In this document: piece after piece, positions 15,912 to 52,960 of the stretch | Layout of the letters: each line of letters starts with the position of its first letter | Position numbering within the stretch: position 1 is the first letter of the stretch | Assembly (NCBI GenBank): GCA_964634935.1 | Contig: CAZWJT010000001.1 | Span: 16,203-80,202 of the forward strand | DNA length: 64,000 bases | Origin: an uncultured Planctomycetia bacterium | Lineage (GTDB): Bacteria > Omnitrophota > Gorgyraeia > Duberdicusellales > Duberdicusellaceae | Reading direction: 5' to 3' | Notes under the pieces: generated by a model | Told to the model about the DNA's origin: nothing | Databases searched by the model: none | Seen by the model: the letters and a program-made list of their open reading frames with translations, nothing else | Position numbers and translations under genes: made by a program

Positions 15912-15972
15912 TATGCCCCCCTGTTTTGAAGAAATGATTTTATGGAAGAAATAGCTGCAAGAAACACCTCAT

Positions 15973-16000
15973 AGTATAGAAACAAAAAGAACCAAGTCAA
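15973..16000 (-). promoter_or_regulatory. candidate sigma-70 promoter for the short MscS gene (TTGACT-16-TATACT on minus strand)
   Basis: Reverse complement of 15973-16000 reads TTGACTtggttctttttgtttcTATACT, about 60 nt upstream of the ATG at 15911. Confidence 0.35.
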
Positions 16001-16080
16001 GAGCAATTTTTCGAAAAATAAGGAATGATTATCGGAATCTTTGAATATCTAAAAATCTTATATCCTATATTCATATAACC

Positions 16081-16590: not shown

Positions 16591-16679
16591 AATACTACGA
16601 CCTTCTCCTCTTTTTACTCTTTTCTGATATACTTGAGAATAAACAGAAAGAATGGATTATAAAACTCAAATGTGTTCAT

Positions 16680-17891
16680 CTATAAATAAACTAAATCCTC
16701 TTTATGATACAAGGAAAGAAATAAAAGCATGTAATCCCTAAGGTGCCGCGTTAATAAAAAATTATTCCGGATATGCTCGCGCCCATTCTCTCCTAATTTT
16801 TTCGCATAGGCTGGGCTATTCAGCAATTGTTTTAACGCAAAAGCTGCTCCATCTACTGAATGACAAAGTAACCCGGAATATTTATGGGTAATTTGCAATG
16901 GAATACCGCCTACGTTTGAAGCCACTACTGGCTTTGCCTTCCATAAAGCCTCAGTAACCGTTAACCCAAATCCTTCCTTAAGAGACTTCTGAATCAGGAT
17001 TGTCGAAGCCCTCTGAATGGCATTTACCTCTAAGTCATTCTGCTGAAGAAGCAAAATATGGATGTCTGGATCATGTTTTGCTTGCTCTTGAACTTCCGCG
17101 TATACCTGCATACCCTCTGGATCATCGAGAGCAGTTCCACCCGCCAAAATAAGACGGCACTCAACATAGCGTTTTACTCTTTTATATGCCTCAATCACGC
17201 CAAGGGGGTCTTTAAGACGATCAAAACGCGAAATTTGCGTAAGTATCGGTTTATCGTTCGGTATCGAGTATTTCTCTAAAACTCTGCCAATCTCATCCTG
17301 TGAAAGCTCTTTATTCTTATCGCTTAATGGATCTATGGATGGGGCAATCAAAAACTGGCGGGTTGGAAATCTTTGCGAAAAGGCAGGAGCTGAAAATACT
17401 GCGGCATCATACTGGATGATAAAATCCCTTAAAAAATCCCATACCTGCTTGTCGGGATGTGAAACGTCGATATGGCATCTCCAGATCCATTTATTCCCGG
17501 CCCGCTTCTGTATCAGAGCAATAGGCTGAGGATCATGAATAAAAACAACATCCCCGTATGTGCGTACTTCTTCGATATTTTTCAAGCTTGTTTCCATAAA
17601 AATATCGAAATCTCGCTGAACCAAATCTTCCGGTTTCCCGTGTAAGGCGTTATGAAACTTCTTCGTAACCTCGAAAAACTGTTCTCCCCCTTTTATCACA
17701 TCCCATTTCGTTTCTACGCCTAATTCGTTTAAGAGAGGAACCATACGGTTTAGAATCTCCGCCACTCCGCCTCCAACAGCAGTAGAATTAATATGCTGAA
17801 TAACTTTCCCGCGTAAACGTTCAGAAAGAAGCCAAAGATCTTCAAGAATTGACTGCCCAACAATAGGTGCATACGCATCAAGCTTTATCAT
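16680..17891 (-). CDS. treT: trehalose glycosyltransferring synthase (GT4), TreT-like
   Basis: Blocks INSTAVGGGVAEIL, HDPQP, IWRCHID, IAPSIDPLS, TQISRFDRLKDP, DDPEG and QKSLKEGFGLTVTEALWK match the TreT family as remembered from Thermococcus/Thermotoga enzymes. Confidence 0.75.
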   Translation of the reverse strand: MIKLDAYAPIVGQSILEDLWLLSERLRGKVIQHINSTAVGGGVAEILNRMVPLLNELGVETKWDVIKGGEQFFEVTKKFHNALHGKPEDLVQRDFDIFMETSLKNIEEVRTYGDVVFIHDPQPIALIQKRAGNKWIWRCHIDVSHPDKQVWDFLRDFIIQYDAAVFSAPAFSQRFPTRQFLIAPSIDPLSDKNKELSQDEIGRVLEKYSIPNDKPILTQISRFDRLKDPLGVIEAYKRVKRYVECRLILAGGTALDDPEGMQVYAEVQEQAKHDPDIHILLLQQNDLEVNAIQRASTILIQKSLKEGFGLTVTEALWKAKPVVASNVGGIPLQITHKYSGLLCHSVDGAAFALKQLLNSPAYAKKLGENGREHIRNNFLLTRHLRDYMLLFLSLYHKEDLVYL

Positions 17892-18559
17892 TCCGTAATT
17901 CTCTCCTTAATTATGTTCAACAGCGTCGTTCTTAATCCTTCCATCGTTTGCGTATAAGGATCAAGCCGGGATATCATCCTGGCAAGCTGAATATCACCGA
18001 GCGAATGCTCAATCCAGTTTGAAAAATCATTATTGATGCGTTCAAGTCGAAGCCTCGCCTCGAAAACATGAAAATAGATTGAATCAATGGTTACTTTTCT
18101 GAGTGCTTCTTCAAACTCTTTTAAATCATAAACCTTATATCGCGTAGGTAGCACGAAACTAATTGATTTCATGAAATGAAATTCTTCGCCTGATTGAGAA
18201 AACCTTAAATGCGCTGTTTTATGCTCACTGAGATATTCTTCAATGGTAGCAACGATTTTTTCCCGCAACTGGCGTATTGTTCCATATTGTATCGTATCGA
18301 TACTCGCGAGTTTTTCTCCTAATTCATCCTCGCCTAAAACCTCAGTCACCCAATATGCAAAATCATTGGGAGGCTCTGGAGAAATATATTGATGCTGCTG
18401 TAAAAACCTGTGGGTATGGTGATAAATGCACGCGCCAGGAACTTCTTTAAGTAAGCCTGCTAAATGAACCAATGTAGCAGCGCGTAAACCGGTTAGCTCT
18501 GAAAGATTAAGCCTTGTCTGAAACTGGAAAGGTTCTTGAGCGCGCTTTAAACCACTCAT
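17888..18559 (-). CDS. hypothetical protein co-transcribed within the trehalose operon
   Basis: 223 aa with no recognised motif. Overlaps both neighbours by 4 nt (ATGA), which suggests translational coupling. Confidence 0.4.
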   Translation of the reverse strand: MSGLKRAQEPFQFQTRLNLSELTGLRAATLVHLAGLLKEVPGACIYHHTHRFLQQHQYISPEPPNDFAYWVTEVLGEDELGEKLASIDTIQYGTIRQLREKIVATIEEYLSEHKTAHLRFSQSGEEFHFMKSISFVLPTRYKVYDLKEFEEALRKVTIDSIYFHVFEARLRLERINNDFSNWIEHSLGDIQLARMISRLDPYTQTMEGLRTTLLNIIKERITE

Positions 18560-19347
18560 GACATATATCCTCTAATCTTCCGTAAAAATCTTATCACTTC
18601 TTTGATGTCGTTCAAGTGATATATGGCGGAAGTTTTCGCTGTGTATCCGACAACGATAGGAATTCCTTTTTTTCGAAGTACCCGAAAAGCATCCTCATCA
18701 GTTTTATCATCGCCAATATAAAGAACAAGGGACGCCTCTTGCTGAGGAAAGATGCTTTGTTTTAAAAGCCAAAGAATAATTTTGCCCTTTCCCCAGGCCA
18801 GAGAAGGCTGCACTTCCAGCACCATTTTTCCTGAATGGACCTTTACGATTCCCTGGAAACGATACGGCGCTGTTACTTTCTGAAAAATCATCTTCGCATC
18901 CTTGATGTTCTTTCTATCTACCAAACGATAATGATAACCCAATGAATATGTTTTATTTTCCAAAAAAACTCCAGGGATAGAAGCAGCGTTCTTTCGAAGG
19001 CGATTCTCAATCTTTCGAAGCGCGACCCGGTACGACCGTGTAATGGGCAACTTAAGCCGAAGGCCAAACCCACAAAGCTCAAAACCATGATTCCCGGCAT
19101 ACAATGCACGCCGTATTCCTATCCTCTTCTTTAAATCACTGAGTTTCCGACCGCTGATAAACGCTAATCGTATTTTTGGGATACGAGAAATCCGCCACAA
19201 TAGATTTCTCGTACTTCTTGCAAGCACAGCCCGTTTCGGCGTAGAAACAATTGGAGTTAGAGTCCCATCAAAGTCTAAACAAAACAGTATATTTTTTAAA
19301 ATAAGTCTCTTTTCGATCTCTGGAAAACTCTGGAGCGCGTGCTTCAT
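18556..19347 (-). CDS. otsB: trehalose-6-phosphate phosphatase (HAD-IIB)
   Basis: DFDGTL motif I, SGR motif II and GDDKTDEDAF motif IV. The start at MKHALQ leaves a 13-nt gap to otsA; the track ORF extends to 19434. Confidence 0.8.
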   Translation of the reverse strand: MKHALQSFPEIEKRLILKNILFCLDFDGTLTPIVSTPKRAVLARSTRNLLWRISRIPKIRLAFISGRKLSDLKKRIGIRRALYAGNHGFELCGFGLRLKLPITRSYRVALRKIENRLRKNAASIPGVFLENKTYSLGYHYRLVDRKNIKDAKMIFQKVTAPYRFQGIVKVHSGKMVLEVQPSLAWGKGKIILWLLKQSIFPQQEASLVLYIGDDKTDEDAFRVLRKKGIPIVVGYTAKTSAIYHLNDIKEVIRFLRKIRGYMS

Positions 19348-19360
19348 TATTGACACAAAA

Positions 19361-21598
19361 TCAAGTTTTTCGGAGAGAAACCAACTCGGTAACAATATTC
19401 CCAACCCAACGATAGATGTTGTTTGCAGAAACAATTTTTCTCATATTCTCCATACGTTTCTTTTTTTCTGGATCAGGCATTTCAACTGCGATTTTTATTG
19501 ACTCTGCAAACTCTTCAATTGCATACGGGTTAAATTGAACTGCATCCGTAAGTTCTCGAGCAGCACCAGTAAACTGGCTTAGAATGAGACTGCCGGATAA
19601 ATCGCTCTTACTTGCAACGTATTCCTTGGCAACCAGATTCATCCCATCATGTAGGGAACTGACAATGCAAAAATCGGCTAATTTATAAAAAGGCATAATT
19701 TCTTCGGCCGAGAAATGTTTTTTAAGATATACGATGGGCTTCCAATCTCCATCCATGTGTTTCCAGTTTTTCTTCTCCACAAGCTCATCAACTTCGGCGA
19801 TAAGATCGTGGTATCGTTTTATGTGCACACGACTTGGGGCAGCCATCTGGATGAAAGTCACTTTCTTCTTATAGTGAGGGTATTTTTCAAAGAATCTGTC
19901 AAGAGCTAAAATTCGCTCAATCAGCCCTTTTGTGTAATCAATTCTGTCTACTCCGATGCCGATGATCCTGCCTTCTAAATCAAATTCACTCTTGATCTTT
20001 GCGATCTGCCGCTCTAGAGGAGAATTATCACATGCTACGGGCATATCCTCTTTCACGCTGATCGGAAAAGCCTTAATAAATGTTTCTTTCTGTGAACGAA
20101 CGACGCTGAATTTCTCCGTGTCTACTCTTGACTCAAGAAGCCGATTTACAGTATCCAAAAAATTATTACAATGATTTTGTACATGAAAACCGATCAAATC
20201 ACACCCGAGCATTCCATCAAGCACTTCTTTCTGATATGGGCATATTGCGAATGATTCTGGGGTAGGCCACGGTATATGCCAAAACAAAGCGATAATCGCA
20301 TCCGGCCTTCTCTCCTTAATCATCTTTCCCAACAGGGTAAAGTGGTAATCCTGAATGAATACAAAAGGGGCAGTCGCAGGCAACTCAGCTATGATACTAT
20401 CAGCAAACTTTTGGTTTACTTGCTTATACATAATCCAATCAGATTCTCGAAAAATAGGGCGGGTATGCGTATTATGACAAAGAGGCCAGAGCCCCTCATT
20501 AGAAAACCCATAATAGTAACCGTCTTCTTCTTCTTTAGTAAGCCAAATCCGCTTAAGAATATACCTGTTGTCTTCCGGAGGAACCCCAAGCTTATCTTTC
20601 GAATTAACGAATTTTTTATCCGCGTTTCCAGCGCCATGCGCAATCCATGTGCCGCCACAAGCGCATAAAATCGGATGAATGGCAGTAACAACGCCACTCG
20701 CCGGTTGTATGCAACGAGCTATCCCTGTTTCCTCGTCAGTAACGTGCATATAGGGCTCACGGTTAGAGACGACAAATAACGAATTCTCTCCTAACTTTGC
20801 TCGCACAAGATCTCTGAGCTTTGCCTCGGTCCAAGCTTCGTCTTTTTGGAGACGCTCTGAAGCTTCTTCCGAGACTGTTCGGCGTGCGATACGTAAACTC
20901 AAAGCAACCTGTTCTACTTCACTTGCCAGCTTCCCAAACTCTCCGTGTTCTTTGATAGGATGCAATTCGTCCGTCTCTCCCTTTTGAAAGTGCGAAAACC
21001 ATACCGTCAATCGTTCAACCGGCAAGGAAAAAATCTGCCTGTGAAGAAAAATCGCTACGATGAAAATAGCAATAACAAGAATGACAAGTGTTACACTGAT
21101 TCTTCGCCAAATCTCAATGAGTCGAGCAAACACATAGGAGGTGTCATGGATAACCTCAACAAGACCAAGAAGCAAGCCCTCTTCATTAACAATCGGCAAC
21201 AAATAACTATATACCGTATAATCCTTAAATTTTTCAAGCTCTCCCCGAGGGATCTGGGTGGACAAAACATCCGGGAGATACGGTTTTTCTTTTTCTTTCC
21301 AATCACTGAATCTTTTCGTGATCGCAATAATTTCTCCTGAAGCATTATACAAAACACAACCTTGCAACCTCTCCCGTGTTTCAAACTTCTCAACTAAATA
21401 ATTAGCATGCCGCATGTTCTTAGCAGTAAAAACCCCCTGGGCCGAAAGCTCCATGCTCTCAGCTATATGTTTTGACTTTCTCTTCAAATCATCAAGAAGC
21501 CTCTCTTCTTCAAAATGAACCTGAAAGTAACCAAACAACGTAAACGCTGCTGTTACAACAATGAGGATTGGAAGAATAAAAAGTAAAACGCGTTTCAT
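19361..21598 (-). CDS. otsA: fusion protein: N-terminal 2-TM periplasmic sensor + HAMP-like linker, C-terminal trehalose-6-phosphate synthase (GT20)
   Basis: Residues ~250-745 carry SLFVVSNREPY, WPLCH, WIQDYHF, GIGVDRIDYTKGL and SLHDGMNLVAKEY (OtsA). Residues 1-250 have TM1 (LLFILPILIVVTAAF), a ~140-aa extracytoplasmic domain, TM2 (VTLVILVIAIFIVAIFL) and an amphipathic linker. Confidence 0.85.
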   Translation of the reverse strand: MKRVLLFILPILIVVTAAFTLFGYFQVHFEEERLLDDLKRKSKHIAESMELSAQGVFTAKNMRHANYLVEKFETRERLQGCVLYNASGEIIAITKRFSDWKEKEKPYLPDVLSTQIPRGELEKFKDYTVYSYLLPIVNEEGLLLGLVEVIHDTSYVFARLIEIWRRISVTLVILVIAIFIVAIFLHRQIFSLPVERLTVWFSHFQKGETDELHPIKEHGEFGKLASEVEQVALSLRIARRTVSEEASERLQKDEAWTEAKLRDLVRAKLGENSLFVVSNREPYMHVTDEETGIARCIQPASGVVTAIHPILCACGGTWIAHGAGNADKKFVNSKDKLGVPPEDNRYILKRIWLTKEEEDGYYYGFSNEGLWPLCHNTHTRPIFRESDWIMYKQVNQKFADSIIAELPATAPFVFIQDYHFTLLGKMIKERRPDAIIALFWHIPWPTPESFAICPYQKEVLDGMLGCDLIGFHVQNHCNNFLDTVNRLLESRVDTEKFSVVRSQKETFIKAFPISVKEDMPVACDNSPLERQIAKIKSEFDLEGRIIGIGVDRIDYTKGLIERILALDRFFEKYPHYKKKVTFIQMAAPSRVHIKRYHDLIAEVDELVEKKNWKHMDGDWKPIVYLKKHFSAEEIMPFYKLADFCIVSSLHDGMNLVAKEYVASKSDLSGSLILSQFTGAARELTDAVQFNPYAIEEFAESIKIAVEMPDPEKKKRMENMRKIVSANNIYRWVGNIVTELVSLRKT

Positions 21599-22677
21599 GA
21601 GAAATTCTTCTCCTGGTTGTAGTTCATTGCCCGAATAGGATAAGGAATAACGATCCCCTCTTTTTTATAACGGCTATGGAGCGCTTTAATAAATTCATGC
21701 TTGACAAGATGCTGATCGACAAATTCTTGAACTCGCAAAATAACTGTAAAATTAATGCTAAAATCACCGAAAGTGTGATAGCGGATAAAGGGGTCGAAAT
21801 CTGGAATGCCTCCCGGGACGATCCGCATAATATCCTTGGCTACCTCACGCGTAATGTGTTCTACTTTCACCAAATCACTTTGGTAATGTACTCCAATATT
21901 TACCAAAACAGCAAGCTCCTTATCTGGTAAATAATAATTCGTAATTATCGATTTGGTCAGTTTTTCGTTCGGCACGAGTATGGCATTATTTGGAAGCATC
22001 CGTATTTTAGTAGTACGCCAGGTTATATCCATCACATACCCCTCTTCTCCTGTTTCGAGTTTAATATAATCGCCGATTTTTACTTGCCGTGCTATGATAA
22101 TATAAAATCCAGAAAAGATATTAGAGAGGGTATCTTGTAACGCCAAAGCAACCGCTAAACTCCCTATGCCCAAAGTAGCCAAAAGCGGAGCAATAGAAAG
22201 CCCCAGGCTGTTCAAAATAATGAGTATTCCTATAGCGAAAATAACCGTCCGACTAATATTTTGGGTGAGCGAGGTTATCGGAAGGGTGGTTTGGATCTTG
22301 TGAGAATACACCCGAATCACACGCGTTGAAATATGCCCCAAAACCAGCATAACCGAAACAACTCCGAGAATAAAAATTGCCTTCTCTACGCCCACAATAA
22401 TCTCTCCTGGAAAACGAGAAATTGCAAGCCCAAAATACGCACCAAGCATAATAAACCAAAGAAGAAAAGGACCCCTTACTGCTTCAATAATAATGTCATC
22501 AATCTGAGACTTGGTGTGCTGAGACCATTGAACCAATCTCTGAAATAAAAATCTCCGTGTACTATACCCGCAAAGGAGTGTAACCAGAAAAACAAGCAAT
22601 GGATTGACAATAAGAACCAGATTTTGCGTAACATACTCCCAAAACATATTCCTCCTGCTCTTAAAATAAAAAGCCAC
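21595..22677 (-). CDS. MscS-family mechanosensitive channel
   Basis: 360 aa, 4-5 TM. Pore helix GIGSLAVALALQDTLSNIFSGFYII, then a beta-domain (VKIGDYIKLETGEEGYVMDITWRTT). Confidence 0.8.
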   Translation of the reverse strand: MAFYFKSRRNMFWEYVTQNLVLIVNPLLVFLVTLLCGYSTRRFLFQRLVQWSQHTKSQIDDIIIEAVRGPFLLWFIMLGAYFGLAISRFPGEIIVGVEKAIFILGVVSVMLVLGHISTRVIRVYSHKIQTTLPITSLTQNISRTVIFAIGILIILNSLGLSIAPLLATLGIGSLAVALALQDTLSNIFSGFYIIIARQVKIGDYIKLETGEEGYVMDITWRTTKIRMLPNNAILVPNEKLTKSIITNYYLPDKELAVLVNIGVHYQSDLVKVEHITREVAKDIMRIVPGGIPDFDPFIRYHTFGDFSINFTVILRVQEFVDQHLVKHEFIKALHSRYKKEGIVIPYPIRAMNYNQEKNFS

Positions 22678-27800: not shown

Positions 27801-28535
27801 TTATTTCTTTGCATGAATTATAAGATGCCGTCCAAATAACAGTTCTCTTGAAAAAAGTATCCGATGTATCCGCTGAAAACCAACATTCCCCTTTCTCCGA
27901 TCTCTGCGCTCTTTTAGATAGGCTTGTCCCTTTAAAAATGGACTTAAGAAAAAATAAAGAAATTTGAGCGGCATACGTTCTAAATCAGTATAAATTCCAG
28001 CCACGCGCAACTTATTCTTGCAAAGAAGATACTCCAGTTCGTGATAACGCCAAGGAATAACATGCATGTTTTGGAAAGCACCCGGAAAAACCCGACAATA
28101 ATCAGCTAATGGCTCACGAAAAAAATCAAAACTACCCTCAAACAAAAATCTCATCCTTGAGCCTACATTCAAGATGTTTGGTGTGGATAAAAATAAACTA
28201 CCATCGGACTTTAACACCCTCTGTATTTCAGAAATAACAAAATCCGGGTTATAGAGATGTTCAATTACCTCAAGAAAAAGAACAAAATCAAATGCTTTAT
28301 CGGAAAATGGAAGCGGAAAACTAAGGTTAGAATGGATAAAAGGTATTTCCTGGTCAAACTGGAATCTCTGTTTGTCCATGTCTGATGCCGTAACCGAAAA
28401 ACCTAAATCAAATAAACGCTTTGAGGTTATTCCATGCCCGCAGCCTAAATCAAGAACAGCGCCCTTTGTCTGCTGAGAACAGAGAGCAATGACTTTCTCT
28501 GAAAGATAATTTTGTGAGCGTTTATTGATTTTCAT
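27801..28535 (-). CDS. class I SAM-dependent methyltransferase
   Basis: VLDLGCGHG (motif I) and a D/E acidic loop. 244 aa. Confidence 0.7.
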   Translation of the reverse strand: MKINKRSQNYLSEKVIALCSQQTKGAVLDLGCGHGITSKRLFDLGFSVTASDMDKQRFQFDQEIPFIHSNLSFPLPFSDKAFDFVLFLEVIEHLYNPDFVISEIQRVLKSDGSLFLSTPNILNVGSRMRFLFEGSFDFFREPLADYCRVFPGAFQNMHVIPWRYHELEYLLCKNKLRVAGIYTDLERMPLKFLYFFLSPFLKGQAYLKERRDRRKGNVGFQRIHRILFSRELLFGRHLIIHAKK

Positions 28536-28840
28536 AGAGATAACTCTCCATGCTCTGTCGCATAGAAACTACTCAAAGAGCCCCCGCATTTGTTTATTAA
28601 CTCTTGCTTCTGCTTCCGTGTTAATTTCTTAAATCGTAATTCGGCAAGAAACGCTGGCTTAAAATATTTATATTCCCGATACCATACAAGCTTCACGGGA
28701 AGTCTGGCGCGTGTGTACTTCGCTCCTTTCCCTGAAGCATGAAGCTTAAAGCGCTCGGCAAGATCTGAAGTATATCCCGTATAGTAGGTAGAATCGGCAC
28801 ATTGCAGTATATAGACATAGAATTTACCGCTCCGTTTCAC
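28532..28840 (-). CDS. GIY-YIG domain protein (UPF0213 type)
   Basis: FYVYILQCADSTYYTGYTSDLAERFKLH is the canonical GIY-YIG block. 102 aa. Confidence 0.8.
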   Translation of the reverse strand: MKRSGKFYVYILQCADSTYYTGYTSDLAERFKLHASGKGAKYTRARLPVKLVWYREYKYFKPAFLAELRFKKLTRKQKQELINKCGGSLSSFYATEHGELSL

Positions 28841-28934: not shown

Positions 28935-31022
28935 CTAAACTCTTCGTTCCTGTATCGGAAGCACAAAGTAAAAGACTGATCCCGACCCAGATACTGATTC
29001 AACCCAAATCTTGCCACGATGCGATTCAATAATTTTTTTAGAGATAGCAAGCCCAAGACCACTGCTTCCTTTGCTGCGTTCGCCTGAGTTGTGCAACTGA
29101 ACAAATTGCTGGAACAATTTCGTGATGTCCTCTGCTTTAATGCCAGGTCCAGTGTCCGAAACAGACACTTCAACAATGTTATTCTTGCAAATGGTAGCTA
29201 CCGTAACCTGCCCTTTTTCGGTAAATTTTAAAGCATTACTCAGAAGATTCGTTATCACCTGAATAATTTTATCCCGGTCAAACTCAATCCGCGGTATATG
29301 CTCTCCAAGCTTCAAAAACAACCCGATACCTTTTGCCTTCGCCATCGGCTCCATACTCGCATATACCTCCCGAGCAACTTCATTGATATCATGCTCCTGA
29401 AATACAAAAGACATCTTGCCTGAATCAAGTTTCTGAAAATCAAGAACTGAGTTAATAAGCCGTGTTAACCTCTCCACGTTCCGTTTTGCAAGATTCAAAA
29501 ATTCTGTCTGTTCTGGACTTAATGTTCCGGTTGTGCCATCTAAAACAATAGCAATGCCCTCTTTGATTGCTGTCAACGGGGTCCTCAATTCATGGGAAAC
29601 CATTGAAGTAAAATCTGATTTTATCGCAAGAGCAAGTTCCAGTTTCTTTTTCACTTCGGTTAAATCCTCTAGAATATTCATCGTTGCCTCCTGGGTTCTC
29701 GTTAATTCACGAGTACGATCTGTAACTTTTTCTTCCAGATGCTTCGATAGCTCTTCGAGTTCTTTCTGAGTCTGTAAGAGTATATTTTGTTTTGACTTGA
29801 TCTGGGAAATCATCTCTTGAAAAGTTTCGGAGAATTGCTCGATTTCATCACGAGTGTGGATATCAAGCGAATAATTCCAGTTACCCTCGAGAATCTTTTC
29901 AGTCGCCATATGTAATTCATGAATCGGTTTGGAAAAGATAGAACCAAAAACATAACCCAAAGGAATGATAAGCATAATAAGTAAAAAAAGAACAAAAAGA
30001 AGATTTGCTATATATTTTGTAAGAGGAATGAAAGCTTCTCGGGAATCCTGGGCAAACACGACAAACAAGATCGGCCCATCTTCTTGCACCGGGGAAAGCC
30101 GGGATCGTGCAAATACCATAAGTATTTTCTCGTGATGTGGAATAAACTTGTCTTTTTCTTCGCTATGCGCGCGCGGATCAGCTATGAGCCACCCATTCTC
30201 TTGGCCTAAGATACGAGGAATCAGATTTTCTGGTAGAATTTTCTGGGTTAATGGCGTTACATTCTGATGAAAAATAACAGTACCCTGTTCATCCACCAAG
30301 CTAGCATGCCCGGTGGTTCCTGCACGAAAATCAGAGAGTATGGATATTACCGATGAGAGATTAAGAACCCCCTTGCAGACACCGATTACTTTTCTGCTAG
30401 AATCGAAGATCGGCACAGCAAGCGGAAGCGAAAATACTCCAGCAGACTCATCAAACTCCACATTACCGATATAATTACTTCCGGCACCATCTGAAAATGC
30501 TGCCTGCCACCATCGTTCGTCTGCTTGATAAAAATCAGAAGTTTTATCCGAGCTGGCAACGAGACCACCATACTGGTCGGTAATAAAGAGTTCCGCTATA
30601 CGCGTATCACTCGCTGCTATTTCTTTCAGTTCTTGAGCGAGTGGTGTCGCAAGCTGCATCGCAAAAACTTCCTCATTCTCGGAGTGTTTCCATGTGGAAT
30701 CTTTCTCGATGAGCAATTGTTCTATTTCGTCGGACTTCAGAGAAACGTATCCCTTATTAGCCTGGCGAATCTCCTCCTTCCAAGATGTGCTTCTTGAATA
30801 TACGCGTAAATCCTCAAGCTCTTCATGGATAATTCTTTCCAAGGCCGCAACAAGAACTTTGACTTCGAGTAACCTTTGGTCCACGAGAATCTTTGTGATC
30901 AGGGTTTTCCCATAAAAATATGCAGCAACAGCGCCGCTCAACGCTACAACAAGAGCAAAACAACAAATCAACAATGTCACTTTCCTCTGAATACCCCGTT
31001 TAGACTTCTTTTTTGTGTTCAT
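28935..31022 (-). CDS. sensor histidine kinase (TM, extracytoplasmic dCache-like domain, TM, HAMP, HisKA, HATPase_c)
   Basis: SHELRTPLTAI H-box. N, G1 (DTGPGI) and G2 (GSSGLGLAI) boxes. Two TM helices flank a ~300-aa sensor domain. Start chosen at MNTKKK. Confidence 0.8.
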   Translation of the reverse strand: MNTKKKSKRGIQRKVTLLICCFALVVALSGAVAAYFYGKTLITKILVDQRLLEVKVLVAALERIIHEELEDLRVYSRSTSWKEEIRQANKGYVSLKSDEIEQLLIEKDSTWKHSENEEVFAMQLATPLAQELKEIAASDTRIAELFITDQYGGLVASSDKTSDFYQADERWWQAAFSDGAGSNYIGNVEFDESAGVFSLPLAVPIFDSSRKVIGVCKGVLNLSSVISILSDFRAGTTGHASLVDEQGTVIFHQNVTPLTQKILPENLIPRILGQENGWLIADPRAHSEEKDKFIPHHEKILMVFARSRLSPVQEDGPILFVVFAQDSREAFIPLTKYIANLLFVLFLLIMLIIPLGYVFGSIFSKPIHELHMATEKILEGNWNYSLDIHTRDEIEQFSETFQEMISQIKSKQNILLQTQKELEELSKHLEEKVTDRTRELTRTQEATMNILEDLTEVKKKLELALAIKSDFTSMVSHELRTPLTAIKEGIAIVLDGTTGTLSPEQTEFLNLAKRNVERLTRLINSVLDFQKLDSGKMSFVFQEHDINEVAREVYASMEPMAKAKGIGLFLKLGEHIPRIEFDRDKIIQVITNLLSNALKFTEKGQVTVATICKNNIVEVSVSDTGPGIKAEDITKLFQQFVQLHNSGERSKGSSGLGLAISKKIIESHRGKIWVESVSGSGSVFYFVLPIQERRV

Positions 31023-31353
31023 CTGATTGCATTGTTGTGCCATCCGGTAGCAAATTCTCAGGGACATTTTTTCCAGACTCTCTCAGCAGATAACGTTGGC
31101 AGGTATTCGCTTGTAGCGTTAAGCAATATCGCTCAGTAAGCTTCACAAGCGCATCAAAGTTTAGGGCTCCAAAATACTTAAAAAGAACGCATTGTTTTAT
31201 ATAGATACACGCAACATCTGGATTTTGGAGCACCTGATAAAAAGGGCATCCTTTATATCTTTCGCTCGTGCAGAATTCAAAAGTATCCTGCGGTATATTT
31301 CCTACATGGTTGGTACACTCCCGAATATAATCTATGAATAACGGACAATTCAT
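31000..31353 (-). CDS. hypothetical Cys-rich small protein (8 Cys)
   Basis: 117 aa. Overlaps the kinase start and the PAS-protein stop (ATGA). No recognised motif. Confidence 0.4.
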   Translation of the reverse strand: MNCPLFIDYIRECTNHVGNIPQDTFEFCTSERYKGCPFYQVLQNPDVACIYIKQCVLFKYFGALNFDALVKLTERYCLTLQANTCQRYLLRESGKNVPENLLPDGTTMQSDEHKKEV

Positions 31354-31955
31354 AATTGTTGCGAAAGCTGTAACTTCAGTTTCGCAAGCTCTGCCTTAAG
31401 CTCTTTCATTCTTAACTCCCGGTCCACCGTAATGCGCTGGAAACGCTCGAGCGCTTCTATTTTTTTCGTTAACTCCTGCTCGGACATCTTGTAACCAGTC
31501 ACATCATATACCAGATGGACCGAACCCAAAAATTCTCCCTCGGCGCTAAAAAGCGGTGAAGTAGTAACCCTCAGATACAACTGCAGGCGTTCATCAAAAA
31601 ACTCAGCACTATGTTTTTCTTGAGTAGCAATAGTATGCGTGTGAGGACAAACCCACAAAGGACTTTTGGTGCCATGGACTATTTCATAACAATGCTTACC
31701 AAGCGCGTCGTCCGGATTTATCTTTAATGCAGAGGCAAAAGACTGATTAATACGTACCACTCTATGATCTTTATCAATCAAAGCGACCATCTCTGTTATA
31801 GAGTTAAATATTTTCTCCCATTCATCTTCCTGGAGACGCAGTTTCGCTATTACCTGTTCAAGCTCAGATTGCTTCTCCAGCAGACGATTCAGTTCTTCCT
31901 GAAGAATTTTTATCTTGTTGTTTAAAGATTCAGACTCAGCGGCATTGCGATCCAT
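31350..31955 (-). CDS. PAS-domain protein flanked by coiled coils
   Basis: N-terminal and C-terminal heptad-rich segments (LQEELNRLLEKQSELEQVIAKL; LKAELAKLKLQLSQQL) around a PAS-like core. Confidence 0.55.
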   Translation of the reverse strand: MDRNAAESESLNNKIKILQEELNRLLEKQSELEQVIAKLRLQEDEWEKIFNSITEMVALIDKDHRVVRINQSFASALKINPDDALGKHCYEIVHGTKSPLWVCPHTHTIATQEKHSAEFFDERLQLYLRVTTSPLFSAEGEFLGSVHLVYDVTGYKMSEQELTKKIEALERFQRITVDRELRMKELKAELAKLKLQLSQQL

Positions 31956-31968
31956 ACATGCTCCAGAT

Positions 31969-34065
31969 CTATCTTCTGTGTAAAATCATCTTAATCCGCG
32001 CCAGCAACTTGTCAGAATCAAAGGGTTTGATAATATAGTCATCCGCGCCTTGCGCAAAACCCTCAAGCTCACTTGACTTATCCTGCCGAGCAGTCAGCAT
32101 AATTACCGGAATCACTGCTGTTTCTAAACGCGATCGCAAATGGCGCAACATCTCGAAACCGTTCATCTTCGGCATAGTAACATCACTAATAATCAAATCC
32201 GGCTTGGCCCGATGCGCAAGCTCTAGAGCTTCGCTTCCGTCGCGGGCGACAATCACTTGATACCCAAAGCTCTGCAATCGGGCTTCGAGAATCCTTAAAA
32301 TATCCTCTTCATCATCGGCGATAAGAATTTTTATTTTTTGTCCGGTATCCCGGGAAAACTTATCGATTCTATCCTCTTCTCTCACTCCAATAACCCGAAT
32401 AAGCTCATCGAGGGTGCTCATTCCGGATGCAACTTTGTCCATCCCGGAATAGATAAGGGGCTTGAGACCGTTGTTTTGGGCGGCGAGGAAAATCTGTTCT
32501 TCAGGAACTTCTTCGGCAATTAGTCTACGGATAGAATCATTGATTGCCATCATCTCAAAAATAGCTGTTCTCCCCATATATCCAGTAAAATTGCATCGCG
32601 GACATCCTTTGCCATGGAAAAATTTAGTAATCCGCAACTCTTCTATGTGTTTTCGAAAATCAGCAATTAAATTTTGCGGAGGAACATATTCTTCCCGACA
32701 ATCAGAACAAATCACTTTTATAAGCCTCTGTGCCACTATCAGGACAACCGACGAAGCAATACTATACGCTTCAACACCTAAATCTCTCAGGCGCGTTACC
32801 GAAGAAACAGAATTATTTGTGTGCATTGTCGAAAGAACCAGATGTCCGGTAAGTGAAGATTGGAATGCGATTTCCGCTGTCTCTTGGTCTCGGATTTCGC
32901 CTACGAGAATAATATTAGGATCCTGTCGTAAAATACTCCTCAATCCGGTAGCAAAGGTGACATTCTTCTGAGGATTTACCTGCATTTGGTTAACCCCCGC
33001 GATAAGATACTCAATCGGATCTTCAATGGTGACGATGTTTTTTGTCTCGTGCTTTATATAATTTAAAGCGGCGTAAAGCGTGCTGGTTTTCCCTGAACCA
33101 GTAGGCCCAGTTACTAAAATCATTCCCTGGGGTTTCCGAATGGCACTCTGAAAAATATGCGAATCAGAAGAACTTAAGCCTATTTTGGCTAAATCGATCT
33201 TTGCCTCTTGAAGATCAAGGAGTCGCATCTCAACTTTTTCTCCGAAAAAAGTTGGAATAACCGAAACACGCAGATCAATCTTCCTGCCATATACAAGAAT
33301 TTTGCTTCGCCCGTCTTGTGGCTTGCGCGTCTCAGCAATATCAAGCTCGGAAAGAATCTTGAGACGAGAAACAATGAACGGATGGAGGGCGGCGGGAATC
33401 CGCATAACATTTTGGAGATCTCCGTCTACCCGATAACGCACGATTACCTCGGATTCTTGCACTTCGACATGAATATCACTTGCCCGGGCTTTCACGGCAT
33501 CGGTAATAATAAGGGTACAAAGACGAACTACCGGAGCGTCTGAATCTTCAATAAGCTGAACAGCGCCGCTGGATGTGAATTTTTTAATCGGCTCAAGAGA
33601 TGTTTGATCGACAATATTCTTTAAAATATCATACACCGTTTCATCTGAATGATAGTGCTGCTCAAGAAAAACCTTAATCACACTTTTTGAACAGAGAATT
33701 GGCTGAATATCCTTTTTCGCAATAACCGCAAGGTCATCCCGCGCGATAACATCTTGAGGATCACTCATCGCAAGAACAAGTGCATTTCTTTCAATCCGAA
33801 CAGGAAACACGCCATATCGTTTTGCCAGTTCATAGGGAACAAGCTTAACAACTTCAGGATCAAACGACTCAGCGGAAAGATCGCATATGGGCATATGGAA
33901 AACTTCCGCGGCTACTTCAACCACCACTTCTTCCTTGATAAAACCCATATCAATAAGCACTTCGTGCAAAGGAATTTTTGCTCCCTGCTGTTTTGATCTG
34001 GCATCATTGATTTGCTCTTGAGTCACCAGTTCTTTTTCCAATAATGCGGTTACGAGTAGTGACAT
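31969..34065 (-). CDS. GspE/PilB-family secretion ATPase fused to a C-terminal CheY-like receiver domain
   Basis: T2SSE_N-like N-domain. Walker A GPTGSGKTST and tetracysteine (CSDC...CPRC). C-terminal ILIADDEEDI...DLIISDVTMPKMNGFE...K receiver domain with the phospho-acceptor Asp. Confidence 0.8.
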   Translation of the reverse strand: MSLLVTALLEKELVTQEQINDARSKQQGAKIPLHEVLIDMGFIKEEVVVEVAAEVFHMPICDLSAESFDPEVVKLVPYELAKRYGVFPVRIERNALVLAMSDPQDVIARDDLAVIAKKDIQPILCSKSVIKVFLEQHYHSDETVYDILKNIVDQTSLEPIKKFTSSGAVQLIEDSDAPVVRLCTLIITDAVKARASDIHVEVQESEVIVRYRVDGDLQNVMRIPAALHPFIVSRLKILSELDIAETRKPQDGRSKILVYGRKIDLRVSVIPTFFGEKVEMRLLDLQEAKIDLAKIGLSSSDSHIFQSAIRKPQGMILVTGPTGSGKTSTLYAALNYIKHETKNIVTIEDPIEYLIAGVNQMQVNPQKNVTFATGLRSILRQDPNIILVGEIRDQETAEIAFQSSLTGHLVLSTMHTNNSVSSVTRLRDLGVEAYSIASSVVLIVAQRLIKVICSDCREEYVPPQNLIADFRKHIEELRITKFFHGKGCPRCNFTGYMGRTAIFEMMAINDSIRRLIAEEVPEEQIFLAAQNNGLKPLIYSGMDKVASGMSTLDELIRVIGVREEDRIDKFSRDTGQKIKILIADDEEDILRILEARLQSFGYQVIVARDGSEALELAHRAKPDLIISDVTMPKMNGFEMLRHLRSRLETAVIPVIMLTARQDKSSELEGFAQGADDYIIKPFDSDKLLARIKMILHRR

Positions 34066-50077: not shown

Positions 50078-52960
50078 TTAAAAAACCGAGGTGGGAATCG
50101 TAAAAGTAAACCGAGTGCCCTCTTCAGGTTTACTCGTTACTGTAATTTTACCGCCGTGTGCCTCAACAATCCCCTTGCAAATCGCAAGACCCAGACCTGT
50201 ACCTTTTTCCTGACCTTCATGAATTCTACCAAATTGCTCAAATTTACTAAAAAGCTTCGGAAGGTTTTCGGACGCGATGCCACGGCCAGTATCGAGAACA
50301 CTGCATTCAATCACCCTGTCTTTATCCTTCTGTAGAATTGAAATTTCAATAAAACCCTCATTGGTAAATTTGAGGGCGTTATCGACTAAATTGGTGAAAA
50401 CCTGAATAATCTTATCTTTGTCAACGTAGGCTTCAATCACGCTATGGGAAAAACGCATCTTCAATTCAACTCTCTTGGCCTGGGCCCGCGAGAAAAATCC
50501 GTCAATTATTGTCTTAGCAAGCGCTGTAATATCGACTATTTCTTTACGCAGTTGCATCTTACCGGCTTCAAGCTTCGAGACATCAAGTAAGTCATTAACG
50601 ATACGGCCAAGCCGGTCAATAGCTCCCAAAGTAACATTCAGAAGTTCCCGTTGTGCCTGAGTAATCTTTCCATGCATCTCTCCTAAAATTTGCGAGACGC
50701 TTTCCCGGATAATCGCCATTGGCGTACGTAATTCGTGTGAAGCAGTACCGATAAAATCATCTTTTAATTGTTCGATCTGCTTACGCTCGGTAATATCGGT
50801 ACCGACACAAAGAATCTCTTCAAGTAATCCCTGATCAGAAAAGATGGGGCGATAGGTCCAGAATACCCAGGTTCCCTCTCCTCCTTTTTTCATATGCTCG
50901 GTAATCCGGCTTATGCTCTTCCCGCTGTTTTGTTGAATCTCCTCGAGAAGCCCCCCAAGATAATCTCCCTGAAACACCCCTGGACTAATTACCGTTCCAA
51001 TGAACGACCGGCCAATAGCCTCATCAGCCGAAAAGCCAAAATACAGGGCCGCGAATTTATTCCAAAAGTTAATCCGTCCTGTTGTATCCATCTTGAAAAT
51101 AATATTGTTTACGTTATCAACTAAATCGCGGTATCGCTCTTGGCTCTGTCGTAAAGCCCGTTCAGCTTTTTTTGTTTCGGCAATATCCCGGATAACTCCG
51201 ATGGATCCGGTAATTTCATTATTTTCATTCCGCAATACGCTAATAGAAATGTCTACTTCAATCAGAGTGCCATCTTTTCTCAGTACGCATGTTTCAAAAT
51301 GATGCTGGATACCTTTCTCTCGAATATTTTCTTGACGGATACGGAGCCACTCCTCTTCCGGGTAAAGAATACTCACGTTTTTCATGTATAAATCTTCAGT
51401 AGTCATACCCAGAAGAATCTCAGTAAACGGATTCCAGGAAATGATGTTTTCTTCTTTGTCGGTAACAGTTATCGCAACCGCAGAGTTATTAAAAATAGTG
51501 CGAAACTTTGCCTCTGATTCCGCGATCTTTTTTTCTGCCATCTTACGTTCAGTAATATCACGCGAGTTAAATACCAACCCTTCTATTTCTTTTTCAAGCA
51601 AGAAATCGTGCGCTATTGATTCTAAGTAAATCCACGCACCATCGCTCCGTCGGTACCGATAATTAATAGAAACAGGCTGCCCACCCTTGGGGAAAGCTTC
51701 CTGAATGGCTTTCTTGACCGATTCTAAATCGTCAGGATGGATGTACTCAAAGAAATTCTTCCCTAGCATCAGCGCTGAGTTATACCCAAGAACCCGCTCA
51801 CTGGAAGGACCCTGATAATGGATCGTGCCTCCTTGATCAATAACCGTAATCACATCAGAGGCATTCTGGATGAGAAATTTGAATCGATCTTCGCCCTCAA
51901 GAAGCTTCTGATGTGATGACTCAAGCTTGCTAAGCATTTTGTTAATCTCATGAGCAAGGCCAGCGATTTCATCATCTCCGTCGATAGAAACGTAGGAAAG
52001 AAAACCTTGATTGTCACTGACCGTGGCAACTTTCGTACTGACGGCATGAAGTCTGGAGAGTATTTCTTTCTCCAGAAAAACGAAAAGAAAAACGAACAAA
52101 AGAAAAAGAACAGAAAAAACTAATAGGCCTAATTGGATAAAACTAGAAAATCCTTGTTGGTAAATTTCCCGAGATACCTCCAGGGTGACAAGAAATGAGT
52201 GTTTACCGGAAATGTCCGGGAAAAGCGTATACCCAAGAAGTTTGTTCGAAGAAACAGGAATCGTAAGATAACGCGCTTTGTCTGAGAATTGCTCCAGCAT
52301 GTTCCCTTCTTCTGGTATCGTAAGTTCCGACGTGTGGCGCAGGGTAAAATTGAGTTGCGTTAATTTTCTAAGTTTATCGATTTCTTGGTTATCTAAAAAA
52401 CGTCCGAACAGGAGCGCGCCGCGCACAGGACCGGTATTATTGCTCCGCAAAACAGGCCAAACAGCAACAAGAAATGGAGTACCTGAAAAGTTATAGATAC
52501 CGCTCTTTGATTTCCCTGCACAGGCATCACGAATAAGAGAAAGAGGATCGGATTGAACAAGCTGGGAAAAAGAATCAGCGATCGGAGTAATTTTCTTTTC
52601 TCCGAGATCAAACCCTCTTTGAAAAACAACTTTACCGTTGACGTCGAAAAGATAAACAACATTGAGCGTTAAATTCATCAACGTATCTTCGACAAAATTT
52701 TTTTCGATATAGTCTCCCGTGCGATCCTGCAAGAAAAAATACGTATCATCCCACATGGCATAATCTCGAGCCATAGTTGAAAGCTGAGCGATAGAGTTTG
52801 AAAAAGCAGCCTCTATCCGCTGAAGATTGCTTTGTGTCCGATCGCGCTCTATTTTCTGGAATCCCCGGAATACAACAAGGTGAAAGATGAAAAAAAGTGC
52901 CGCATAAGAAACTACGGCCACAATAATCATCATGAGAAAAACTTTATTCCGAACCTTCAT
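50078..52960 (-). CDS. multi-PAS sensor histidine kinase with extracytoplasmic N-terminal sensor domain
   Basis: Two TM helices flank a ~250-aa domain. At least three PAS repeats, H-box SHELRTPMAI, and HATPase boxes (DTGRGI; GTGLGLAI). 960 aa. Confidence 0.8.
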   Translation of the reverse strand: MKVRNKVFLMMIIVAVVSYAALFFIFHLVVFRGFQKIERDRTQSNLQRIEAAFSNSIAQLSTMARDYAMWDDTYFFLQDRTGDYIEKNFVEDTLMNLTLNVVYLFDVNGKVVFQRGFDLGEKKITPIADSFSQLVQSDPLSLIRDACAGKSKSGIYNFSGTPFLVAVWPVLRSNNTGPVRGALLFGRFLDNQEIDKLRKLTQLNFTLRHTSELTIPEEGNMLEQFSDKARYLTIPVSSNKLLGYTLFPDISGKHSFLVTLEVSREIYQQGFSSFIQLGLLVFSVLFLLFVFLFVFLEKEILSRLHAVSTKVATVSDNQGFLSYVSIDGDDEIAGLAHEINKMLSKLESSHQKLLEGEDRFKFLIQNASDVITVIDQGGTIHYQGPSSERVLGYNSALMLGKNFFEYIHPDDLESVKKAIQEAFPKGGQPVSINYRYRRSDGAWIYLESIAHDFLLEKEIEGLVFNSRDITERKMAEKKIAESEAKFRTIFNNSAVAITVTDKEENIISWNPFTEILLGMTTEDLYMKNVSILYPEEEWLRIRQENIREKGIQHHFETCVLRKDGTLIEVDISISVLRNENNEITGSIGVIRDIAETKKAERALRQSQERYRDLVDNVNNIIFKMDTTGRINFWNKFAALYFGFSADEAIGRSFIGTVISPGVFQGDYLGGLLEEIQQNSGKSISRITEHMKKGGEGTWVFWTYRPIFSDQGLLEEILCVGTDITERKQIEQLKDDFIGTASHELRTPMAIIRESVSQILGEMHGKITQAQRELLNVTLGAIDRLGRIVNDLLDVSKLEAGKMQLRKEIVDITALAKTIIDGFFSRAQAKRVELKMRFSHSVIEAYVDKDKIIQVFTNLVDNALKFTNEGFIEISILQKDKDRVIECSVLDTGRGIASENLPKLFSKFEQFGRIHEGQEKGTGLGLAICKGIVEAHGGKITVTSKPEEGTRFTFTIPTSVF

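Follow-up and report, generated by a model that had tools for sequence, protein, structure and literature searches.

The locus described here raises the question of whether a secretion-type ATPase can be a direct output of two-component signalling, and what such an ATPase would drive. Four tightly packed genes, delineated by ORF inspection on the minus strand (34065..28935) of the window, i.e., of the whole 64-kb stretch of DNA analysed, from an uncultured Omnitrophota bacterium, encode a PilB/GspE-type ATPase fused to a receiver (REC) domain, a PAS protein, a Cys-rich protein and a sensor histidine kinase, transcribed in this order (Table 1). The operon is read here, with moderate confidence, as encoding a two-component-controlled pilus or pseudopilus motor. 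Attachment of ultra-small Omnitrophota to hosts or prey is thought to depend centrally on type IV pili (T4P) and fibres related to them (PMC10066038).

Table 1. Genes and domains of the operon, with positions in the window.
Feature	Position	Strand	Length or residues	Basis and remarks
PilB/GspE-type assembly ATPase with C-terminal receiver	31969..34065	-	698 aa	First gene; Pfam T2SSE 7.8e-130, MshEN 1.1e-18, Response_reg 5.5e-30
MshEN-type N-terminal domain	33640..34065	-	aa 1-142	Pfam MshEN covers aa 56-142
ATPase core	32395..33546	-	aa 174-557	Motifs conserved in 26-sequence alignment A1
Receiver domain	31990..32328	-	aa 580-692	Pfam Response_reg 5.5e-30, above gathering score
PAS protein, cytoplasmic, coiled-coil/PAS/coiled-coil	31350..31955	-	201 aa	Pfam PAS_4 4.9e-11
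Small protein with 8 conserved Cys	31000..31353	-	117 aa	Uncharacterised family
Membrane sensor histidine kinase	28935..31022	-	695 aa from M16	Pfam, motif positions

Gene junctions, kinase and accessory proteins

The gene order and the first two junctions given in the initial annotation are borne out by the ORFs: a 13-nt gap, with GGAG inside, separates the ATPase and PAS genes, and an ATGA overlap joins the PAS and Cys-rich genes. The overlap of about 23 nt proposed between the Cys-rich and kinase genes holds only with the kinase start at M16 (31022), the start favoured by orthologue alignment, and becomes 44 or 68 nt with the alternative ATG codons at 31043 or 31067. The operon had also been described as ending in the ATPase, which is correct in plus-strand coordinates only, the ATPase gene being the first to be transcribed; the gene order in the same annotation already implied this. 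Spacing this tight would allow translational coupling of the genes, which counts for the two-component-controlled motor.

The kinase is composed of a first transmembrane segment, a periplasmic dCache_1 domain, a second transmembrane segment, HAMP, a coiled coil, HisKA and HATPase_c (Pfam matches dCache_1 2e-19, HAMP 4e-6, HisKA 6.6e-17, HATPase_c 1e-27), with the hydrophobic segments at approximately residues 15–37 and 339–361. It has an H box (SHELRTP with H477, codon 29594..29592), an N box (NLLSNALKF at 592), a G1 box (DTGPGI at 623) and a G2 box (GLGLAI at 655), and together with the two transmembrane segments and HAMP these place it among HisKA-class transmembrane sensor kinases. Pfam scores for the operon proteins are far beyond chance.

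Eleven loci were compared, i.e., the window and 10 related ones (designated by L numbers), and a histidine kinase is present in the cluster in 10 of them. The kinase shares 41–44% identity over its full length with the orthologues lying 3′ of PilB-REC in L081, L083 and L084, and 53–59% in the core with those of L082 and L086, the core being orthologous even where the sensor domains differ. Orthologues of the PAS protein, which has its PAS domain at aa 45–153 and a conserved C-terminal helix, LERFQRITVDRELRMKELK, at aa 163–201, come after PilB-REC in L081, L083 and L084. The kinases of L082, L086 and L090 carry fused PAS domains, which points to a functional tie between the free PAS protein and the kinase. 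The Cys-rich protein matched no Pfam family and is a lineage-variable accessory gene product.

The adjacency of kinase and ATPase might be coincidental, with the dCache kinase acting on an unlinked regulator and the receiver being served by another kinase, e.g., the second, orphan kinase of the window (CHASE4-PAS, 50078..52960). Phosphotransfer from the neighbouring kinase to the receiver would be deduced from co-location, and promoter and terminator scans left the bounds of the operon undefined, both of which leave room for such an arrangement. It is nevertheless highly improbable, given that a 13-nt gap, an ATGA overlap and a 23–68-nt overlap link the four genes and that the orthologous kinase core is found 3′ of PilB-REC at 10 of the 11 loci across the family.

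The receiver-fused ATPase

The ATPase has its best solved relatives in the Geobacter and Myxococcus PilB structures. Its core contains Walker A (GPTGSGKT, G320–T327), the Asp box (EDPIE, E348–E352), Walker B with the catalytic Glu (ILVGEIRD, I386–D393), the His box (TGHLVLSTMHT, T406–T416) and the Zn tetracysteine C453/C456/C488/C491, and these motif residues are strictly invariant in 26 homologues save a few flanking positions (alignment A1). With the motor motifs invariant, down to the catalytic Glu and the Zn tetracysteine, the mechanical ATPase function has presumably been retained. The protein scores 587.4 bits against the NCBIfam PilB equivalog (TIGR02538, cut-off 675.65) and 557.7 bits against the GspE equivalog (TIGR02533, cut-off 630.25), in both cases below the cut-off, which counts against the motor reading.

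The core is joined to the receiver by a linker of some 20 aa that varies in length in alignment A1; for the receiver, the nearest solved structures are PleD REC1, PhoP and YycF. Residues D584, D585, D628, T658 and K680 are invariant in the 26 homologues, so that the receiver is, by its residues, a canonical one with the acidic pair, the phospho-acceptor Asp, the Thr and the Lys all kept; the predicted phospho-acceptor is D628 (codon 32184..32182). The initial annotation had made its interpretation depend on an alignment revealing this Asp, and on that point it stands. It had also stated that the kinase has no cognate response regulator other than the receiver on the ATPase, in agreement with this receiver being the sole REC in the 64-kb window. 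As the receiver is canonical and is the only partner in the window, and the kinase is kept in all but one of the loci, it can soundly be deduced from the sequences that a secretion-type hexameric ATPase is under phosphorylation control.

Phosphorylation is probably the input to this ATPase instead of c-di-GMP. Known c-di-GMP receptors of this type carry two copies in tandem of the motif RLGxx(L/V/I)(L/V/I)xxG(L/V/I)(L/V/I)xxxxLxxxLxxQ (PMC5013675). When N-termini were compared with those of canonical PilB and MshE, both 24-residue motifs were found without the RLG start, L3-L4-V5 and P32-L33-H34 standing in the alignment at R9–G11 and R38–G40 of VcMshE. The two tandem motifs of an MshEN c-di-GMP receptor thus appear to be lost, though the Pfam MshEN fold matches, and the changes reported for the non-binding XpsE are similar to the RLG replacements seen here. 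The relaxed motif of the same study was matched by none of 26 family members, which is weak evidence, many canonical PilBs failing the same regular expression. What is common with the c-di-GMP-gated MshE/PilB ATPases is the N-terminal fold family and the concept of a motor gated directly at the post-translational level (PMC5013675); what differs is the replaced RLG of both motifs. MshEN+REC combinations are mentioned in that study only in passing (PMC5013675).

Related loci and the machine served

The 120 best database homologues (50–61% identity), from Omnitrophota and one member of Auribacterota, are all MshEN+T2SSE+REC fusions. The search for T2SSE and Response_reg fusions suggested in the initial annotation thus led to a whole family, and the receiver-fused arrangement is evidently common in Omnitrophota. 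In a neighbour-joining tree of the ATPase core, calculated without support values, PilB-REC forms a monophyletic paralogue apart from the canonical Omnitrophota PilB. Omnitrophota also have canonical PilB paralogues, each provided with a PilC, pilin and PilM/N locus, which makes a dedicated machine for PilB-REC in the lineage less certain. No experimental description of a receiver-fused PilB was found in the literature.

The initial annotation noted that no GspF/PilC platform, pilin or secretin gene is adjacent, and this is true for the full window: Pfam searches of about 50 ORFs, tblastn with PilC and a prepilin-motif scan gave no T2SSF/PilC, pilin, secretin, PilM/N or PilT within 64 kb, nor was a prepilin peptidase found there. 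Likewise, PilC/GspF, pilin, prepilin peptidase and secretin genes are absent within ±10 kb in eight of the 10 related loci. These absences count against the motor reading. The other two loci, L085 and L088, which form the basal clade of the PilB-REC family, count for it. In both, the ATPase gene is directly followed by GspF/PilC, GspG-, GspI- and GspH-like prepilin genes and a shared unknown gene (387 aa), and in L088 the GspF/G/I/H-like set shares a single cluster with PAS, kinase and REC genes. Platform and prepilin-like genes thus directly adjoin the ATPase gene in two of the 11 family loci. The downstream genes have their best matches in GspF, GspG, GspI and GspH, all with scores below the equivalog cut-offs, and the secretin GspD and GspC/L/M, by which membership of a gsp cluster is recognised, were found neither in the window nor in L085 or L088.

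The missing neighbours could also mean that the major clade, including this genome, is uncoupled from pilus and secretion systems and that its ATPase is a free-standing signalling protein acting on another target. Consistent with this, the diverged, paralogous family falls short of the equivalog cut-offs for both PilB and GspE, and the phylum has canonical PilBs with loci of their own; PilB as a signalling protein has a precedent (PMC5544727), an example being the signalling of M. xanthus PilB to exopolysaccharide production. Such a role is distinctly doubtful, in view of the invariant motor motifs and the GspF/G/I/H operons of the basal clade. Moreover, many genomes have their T4P and type II secretion system (T2SS) genes scattered, so that non-adjacency is weak evidence for uncoupling. 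The stronger form of the proposal, in which the major-clade ATPase left the pilus machinery and the phosphorylation-gated hexamer became a two-component output with a non-pilus target, or a signal-gated alternative motor taking over the canonical T4aP machine, is improbable to the same degree; if true, it would define a new class of response-regulator effector. The initial annotation had seen a signalling output rather than a part of a canonical secretion system. Its phosphorylation-controlled hexameric ATPase stands as a sound deduction, given the canonical receiver and the conserved kinase, and the contrast with secretion is weakened by L085 and L088, where the ATPase heads a GspF-GspG-GspI-GspH-like set.

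Most relatives have further receivers. A stand-alone REC gene lies upstream in nine of the 11 loci, eight of these being an orthologous CheY-like gene (41–60% identity) immediately next to the ATPase gene; the upstream REC of L088 lies about 0.5 kb from the ATPase and has 26–36% identity. One to three additional RECs are encoded 3′ of the kinase in most loci. The sole-receiver situation is therefore specific to this genome. If the stand-alone CheY-like proteins were the true effectors of a branched multi-REC pathway, the fused receiver might act as a phosphate sink, relay or localisation tag, tethering the ATPase or the kinase signal to one place in the cell and leaving ATPase activity unchanged; pilus control offers established examples both of sink receivers and of antagonistic receiver pairs of the PilG/PilH type (PMC11656802). 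This is considered unlikely, as in the window the kinase and the fusion are retained with no other REC, conservation of the receiver equals that of the ATPase (63–73% identity to the L081–L083 orthologues), and the fusion is fixed across the family.

Proposed mechanism and comparison with known systems

For the two-component-controlled motor the following route is proposed. The dCache domain of the membrane kinase would sense an extracytoplasmic ligand, and the separate PAS protein, joined in this lineage by the 8-Cys protein, would probably supply cytoplasmic input. The kinase would autophosphorylate at H477 and pass the phosphoryl group to D628 of the fused receiver, which would then alter the assembly state or activity of the motor, or its docking on the PilC/GspF platform, the likely route being receiver dimerisation between neighbouring ATPase protomers. 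The signal would thereby gate fibre assembly directly, without transcription or a second messenger. Along this route we infer the phosphotransfer from kinase to receiver, how phosphorylation affects the ATPase, the ligand, and the platform and pilins served in this genome. If correct, this would connect an extracellular cue to pilus or pseudopilus assembly more directly than any link seen so far, requiring no transcription, c-di-GMP or adaptor proteins. It would offer a compact testable system made up of a kinase fragment, an ATPase and a single Asp, which could reveal how receiver phosphorylation becomes control of a PilT-like hexamer, and the fusion, in the manner of a Rosetta stone, would support the idea that REC proteins regulate PilB directly in other bacteria.

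The match with PilB (Geobacter PDB 5tsg/6olj, Myxococcus 3jc8, Thermus PilF) is colinear over residues 7–559 at about 450 bits and extends to the MshEN-type N-terminus, N2D and CTD, Walker A and B, the Asp and His boxes and the Zn tetracysteine. Unlike PilB, the ATPase has an extra C-terminal receiver and degenerate c-di-GMP motif residues, scores below the TIGR02538 cut-off, belongs to a separate clade and is adjoined in the window by no pilC, pilM-Q or pilA. With GspE/EpsE of the T2SS it has in common the ATPase core (558 bits against TIGR02533) and, in L085 and L088, the GspF/G/I/H-like 3′ genes; it differs in its N-terminus, of MshEN type and not the GspL-binding N1E type, in the fused receiver, and in that no GspD or GspC/L/M was recognised at those two loci.

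REC-domain proteins that act on PilB in trans include PilG/PilH and FimX (PMC11656802), and PATAN response regulators are reported to interact with the Synechocystis pilus motor (preprint 10.1101/2021.06.11.447907). The logic of these systems (Pil-Chp PilG/PilH, FimX-PilZ-PilB, Synechocystis PATAN), in which a receiver module controls the timing or place of the extension motor, is the same, whereas the receiver of the window is attached covalently to the motor, with a classical dCache kinase, not a CheA-type one, as its partner. A REC-PilB fusion is absent from the 2024 review of PilB cofactors.

Hexameric ATPases gated by REC domains are found in the NtrC family, where receiver phosphorylation controls assembly or activity of the ring ATPase, as proposed here. 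In contrast to NtrC, the ATPase of the window is PilT-like ASCE, not AAA+, has its receiver at the C-terminus, not the N-terminus, and is without a DNA-binding or sigma-54 role. The solved structures that were matched include V. cholerae GspE chains carrying an Hcp1 fusion (4ksr, 4kss), in which the C-terminal Hcp1 reportedly drove hexamer formation and raised ATPase activity; if so, a C-terminal oligomerising partner can control this class of ATPase.

Receiver-fused PilB/GspE ATPases of Omnitrophota

The fusion of a PilB/GspE-type ATPase to a C-terminal receiver (PilB-REC), picked out in the initial annotation, represents a family and not a one-off, since all of the best 120 database matches have the same MshEN, T2SSE and REC architecture, with 50-61% identity (the window's own 100% entry aside). 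The named matches among these 120 come from Omnitrophota MAGs, and one from Auribacterota. In databases, PilB-REC proteins are annotated generically as PilB, TadA or 'response regulator'. PilBs lacking REC are also abundant in Omnitrophota; in a canonical type IV pilus (T4P) locus of this phylum (L016), two such PilBs stand in tandem, along with an MshEN-only protein, PilC, pilin, PilM and PilN. In the NJ tree of the ATPase core, which is without support values, the REC-fused proteins form one clade, to which neither the canonical PilBs of Omnitrophota nor PilB/GspE from other phyla belong. Scanning of species genomes with the family alignment (patterns GPTGSGKT and GADDYxxKP) retrieved mostly generic PilB/GspE and no Omnitrophota PilB-REC locus; it did yield L016 and the arrangements of other phyla described next.

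PilB/REC associations in other phyla are independent. Genes for a kinase, a stand-alone REC and PilB are lined up in a Deltaproteobacteria MAG; a MAG labelled Mycobacteriales encodes a PilB of 818 aa whose C-terminal REC has just 28% identity; and in Alloalcanivorax a GspE-like ATPase accompanies a hybrid kinase and REC proteins.

Residue conservation was assessed over 26 aligned family members. The motifs retained by the ATPase, with invariant key residues, are Walker A (G320-T327), Asp box (E348-E352), Walker B including the catalytic Glu (I386-D393), His box (T406-T416) and the Zn-binding C453/C456/C488/C491. In the receiver, joined to the ATPase by a linker of variable length, the acidic pair D584/D585, T658, K680 and the predicted phospho-acceptor D628 are invariant; the Asp on which the proposal of phosphorylation control depended is thus present. 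The closest solved relatives are full-length PilB of Geobacter and Myxococcus and PilF of Thermus (approximately 420-450 bits over residues 7-559), followed by GspE/EpsE; matched structures include Vibrio cholerae GspE chains fused to Hcp1 (4ksr, 4kss). NCBIfam scores are below both equivalog cut-offs (PilB, 587 vs 675.65; GspE, 558 vs 630.25), and by sequence PilB-REC is a diverged member of the PilB/GspE class and a strict orthologue of neither. The nearest relatives of its receiver are of PhoP, YycF and PleD type.

The MshEN-type N-terminus lacks, in the whole family, the Arg-Leu-Gly start of both 24-residue c-di-GMP motifs, as defined for MshEN (PMC5013675), and resembles in this the changes reported for the non-binding XpsE. 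The relaxed motif from the same source matched 0 of 26 family members, and many canonical PilBs fail this regex too. These features only suggest that c-di-GMP input was lost, and phosphorylation may act in its place.

T4aP were reported as almost universal in Omnitrophota and roles in host attachment were proposed, with no discussion of pilus regulation (PMC10066038; 10.64898/2026.06.07.730766). A 2024 review of PilB cofactors covers c-di-GMP, PilZ/FimX, Pil-Chp and others, and the PilB-REC fusion is absent from it (PMC11656802). Co-occurrence of MshEN and REC was mentioned in passing (PMC5013675), and a literature search found no experimental or dedicated bioinformatic description of PilB-REC.

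The four-gene operon and its surroundings

Features of the operon, its window and compared loci (window positions unless a locus is named)
Feature	Location	Strand	Description
PilB-REC ATPase	34065..31969	-	Gene 1, 698 aa; Pfam MshEN (1.1e-18), T2SSE (7.8e-130), Response_reg (5.5e-30)
MshEN-type N-terminus	33640-34065	-	Part of PilB-REC
PAS protein	31955..31350	-	Gene 2, 201 aa; Pfam PAS folds
PAS domain	31497-31823	-	C88-x4-H93...C102-P-H104 cluster
PAS C-terminal helix	31353-31469	-	LERFQRITVDRELRMKELK
Cys-rich protein	31353..31000	-	Gene 3, 117 aa; no Pfam family
Histidine kinase	end 28935	-	Gene 4; Pfam dCache_1, HAMP, HisKA, HATPase_c
GIY-YIG protein	28532-28840	-	Small protein
SAM methyltransferase	27801-28535	-	
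Orphan kinase	50078-52960	-	960 aa; CHASE4, three PAS, HisKA, HATPase_c
Trehalose synthesis cluster	15405-22677	-	TreT-type synthase, DUF5752, trehalose phosphatase, GT20 OtsA-like
PAS proteins with conserved end helix	L081 12130-13470; L083 12110-13717; L084 12111-12635; L089 521-2260		Helix version of L089: GRELRMIELKKEVN
CheY-like REC abutting PilB-REC	~9610-9999 in related loci		L081-L084, L086, L087, L089, L090
387-aa gene	L085 14658-15821		After pseudopilins
PAS-fused homologue of 387-aa gene	L088 14615-17191		Multiple PAS
Kinase, REC, PilB row	L002 8004-12215		Deltaproteobacteria MAG
818-aa PilB	L008 1828-4284		MAG labelled Mycobacteriales
GspE-like ATPase region	L047 4303-12640		Alloalcanivorax

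The four tightly packed genes were recovered with the contents and junctions first described (ORFs, Pfam, junction sequences), and this observation is statistically secure. The ATPase, originally placed at the end of the operon, is its first gene in transcription order. It is separated from the PAS gene by a 13-nt gap containing GGAG; the PAS and Cys-rich genes share an ATGA overlap. The Cys-rich/kinase overlap measures 23 nt with a kinase start at M16 (31022), the start favoured by alignment with orthologues; starting from the ATG at 31043 or 31067 would lengthen it to 44 or 68 nt. The kinase has an H box with H477 (M16 numbering) and N, G1 and G2 boxes, and its dCache domain is flanked by two hydrophobic segments. 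Scans for sigma-70 promoters and terminators gave hits at or below shuffled expectation, and the operon limits are defined by neither.

The minus strand carries all long ORFs of the window, whose GC skew is negative along its whole length. The strand bias, across approximately 55 genes of the 64-kb window (1-64000), is unusually complete. As first noted for the immediate neighbours, machine genes are missing: Pfam scans of approximately 50 window ORFs detected no PilC/GspF, pilin, secretin, PilM/N/O or PilT, and neither a prepilin-motif scan nor tblastn with two PilC queries found anything in the window. The receiver on the ATPase is the sole one in the window, in agreement with the early view that the kinase has no other partner. 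A second, orphan kinase has no response regulator nearby, and could in principle be an additional feeder of the ATPase receiver. Directly downstream of the operon kinase lies the GIY-YIG gene, overlapping the SAM methyltransferase gene by 4 nt, and a B12-binding radical SAM enzyme follows; no link of these genes to the operon is evident. The trehalose cluster is flanked by two MscS-type mechanosensitive channels, and together they look like an osmoprotection island.

The free PAS proteins encoded in the window and in L081, L083 and L084 have the C-terminal helix in common; its conservation exceeds that of the PAS fold, and it may serve the kinase as a docking site or as a coiled-coil element. 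In three of four orthologues the Cys/His cluster of the PAS domain is retained, which suggests that it binds a metal or cofactor. The Cys-rich protein, with no match in Pfam or NCBIfam, is one of an uncharacterised family that has 121 representatives at E<=1e-3 and eight conserved Cys. A metagenome scan with a three-sequence alignment gave 11 loci, one of which (L091) is on the same contig as L083. The protein is not specific to the PilB-REC system, because the other ten have no PilB-REC, PAS or kinase homologue beside the Cys-rich gene; some look archaeal or adjoin hydrogenase/Nuo-like genes (by eye, from ORF N-termini only). It is an accessory, plausibly one that senses metal or redox state, and does not define the system.

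Neighbourhoods of related loci

Ten related loci (L081-L090) were compared with the window by BLAST. A histidine kinase is present in the cluster in 10 of the 11 loci, with 41-44% full-length identity to that of the window in L081, L083 and L084, and 53-59% over HisKA-HATPase in L082 and L086; on alignment the kinase core is orthologous despite differing sensors. With linkage conserved in this way, a coincidental adjacency of ATPase and kinase is highly improbable. A separate PAS protein directly follows the ATPase in the window, L081, L083 and L084, and is located further downstream, ahead of the kinase, in L087 and L088; in L082, L086, L089 and L090 PAS domains are within the kinase. Of the related loci, only L083 has the Cys-rich gene placed as in the window (45% identity).

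Stand-alone CheY-like RECs lie upstream of the ATPase in nine loci. In eight of the ten related loci this REC abuts the PilB-REC start and is orthologous (41-60% identity); it is absent from the window and L085, and L088 has an unrelated REC approximately 0.5 kb upstream. One to three further RECs come after the kinase in most loci, and none in the window. A receiver serving as sink, relay or localisation tag in a multi-REC pathway would suit these relatives with many RECs, but is unlikely given that the window has no other REC.

In L085 the orthologous ATPase (54% identity) is directly followed by a GspF/PilC-like platform, GspG-, GspI- and GspH-like prepilins and a 387-aa gene; best matches of these downstream genes are all below cut-off, that of the platform being NCBIfam GspF with 332 bits. 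Its sister L088 has the same F-G-I-H set (50-58% identity), and genes for a REC, a PAS kinase and a multi-PAS protein belong to that cluster as well. Because of these gene sets, the PilB-REC family is tied to a compact T2SS/T4P-like fibre module. Within the family, both ATPases take a basal position in the NJ tree and a nested one in the family-only tree. The simplest history starts from an ancestral operon that combined ATPase-REC with platform, pseudopilin and two-component genes; the major clade would later have parted its ATPase and signalling genes from those of the machine. The 387-aa gene has in L088 a homologue (43% identity over 370 aa) fused with multiple PAS domains, which points to an uncharacterised machine component linked to the signalling module. 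A Y1 transposase lies between this PAS-fused homologue and the kinase.

The same two operons bear on the first interpretation, a phosphorylation-controlled ATPase acting as signalling output outside a secretion or pilus machine. Its phosphorylation control is well supported by inference; its independence from a machine is not, in view of L085 and L088. A free-standing signalling ATPase would agree with machine genes not being adjacent and with the divergence of the paralogue, but the invariant motor motifs and the L085/L088 operons make it quite unlikely. PilB-REC is best seen as a receiver-fused PilB/GspE motor with a conserved, putatively cognate kinase, widespread in Omnitrophota.

Proposed control of the motor

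The reading that we favour, and hold to be probable, is a two-component-gated motor. The dCache kinase would sense an extracytoplasmic ligand, the cytoplasmic PAS protein would add input to the kinase, and in the lineage of the window the 8-Cys protein would probably do so as well. The kinase would then transfer the phosphoryl group onto D628, and the phosphorylated receiver would change hexamer assembly, activity or docking on the platform. What we infer here comprises the phosphotransfer itself, whether regulation is positive or negative, the ligand and which platform the source genome uses. OmpR/PhoB-type receivers dimerise upon phosphorylation, and NtrC-type REC-AAA+ proteins offer a regulatory analogy. 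A C-terminal fusion of V. cholerae GspE to Hcp1 reportedly drove hexamer formation and raised ATPase activity, and would show by analogy how ATPases of this class can be controlled from the C-terminus.
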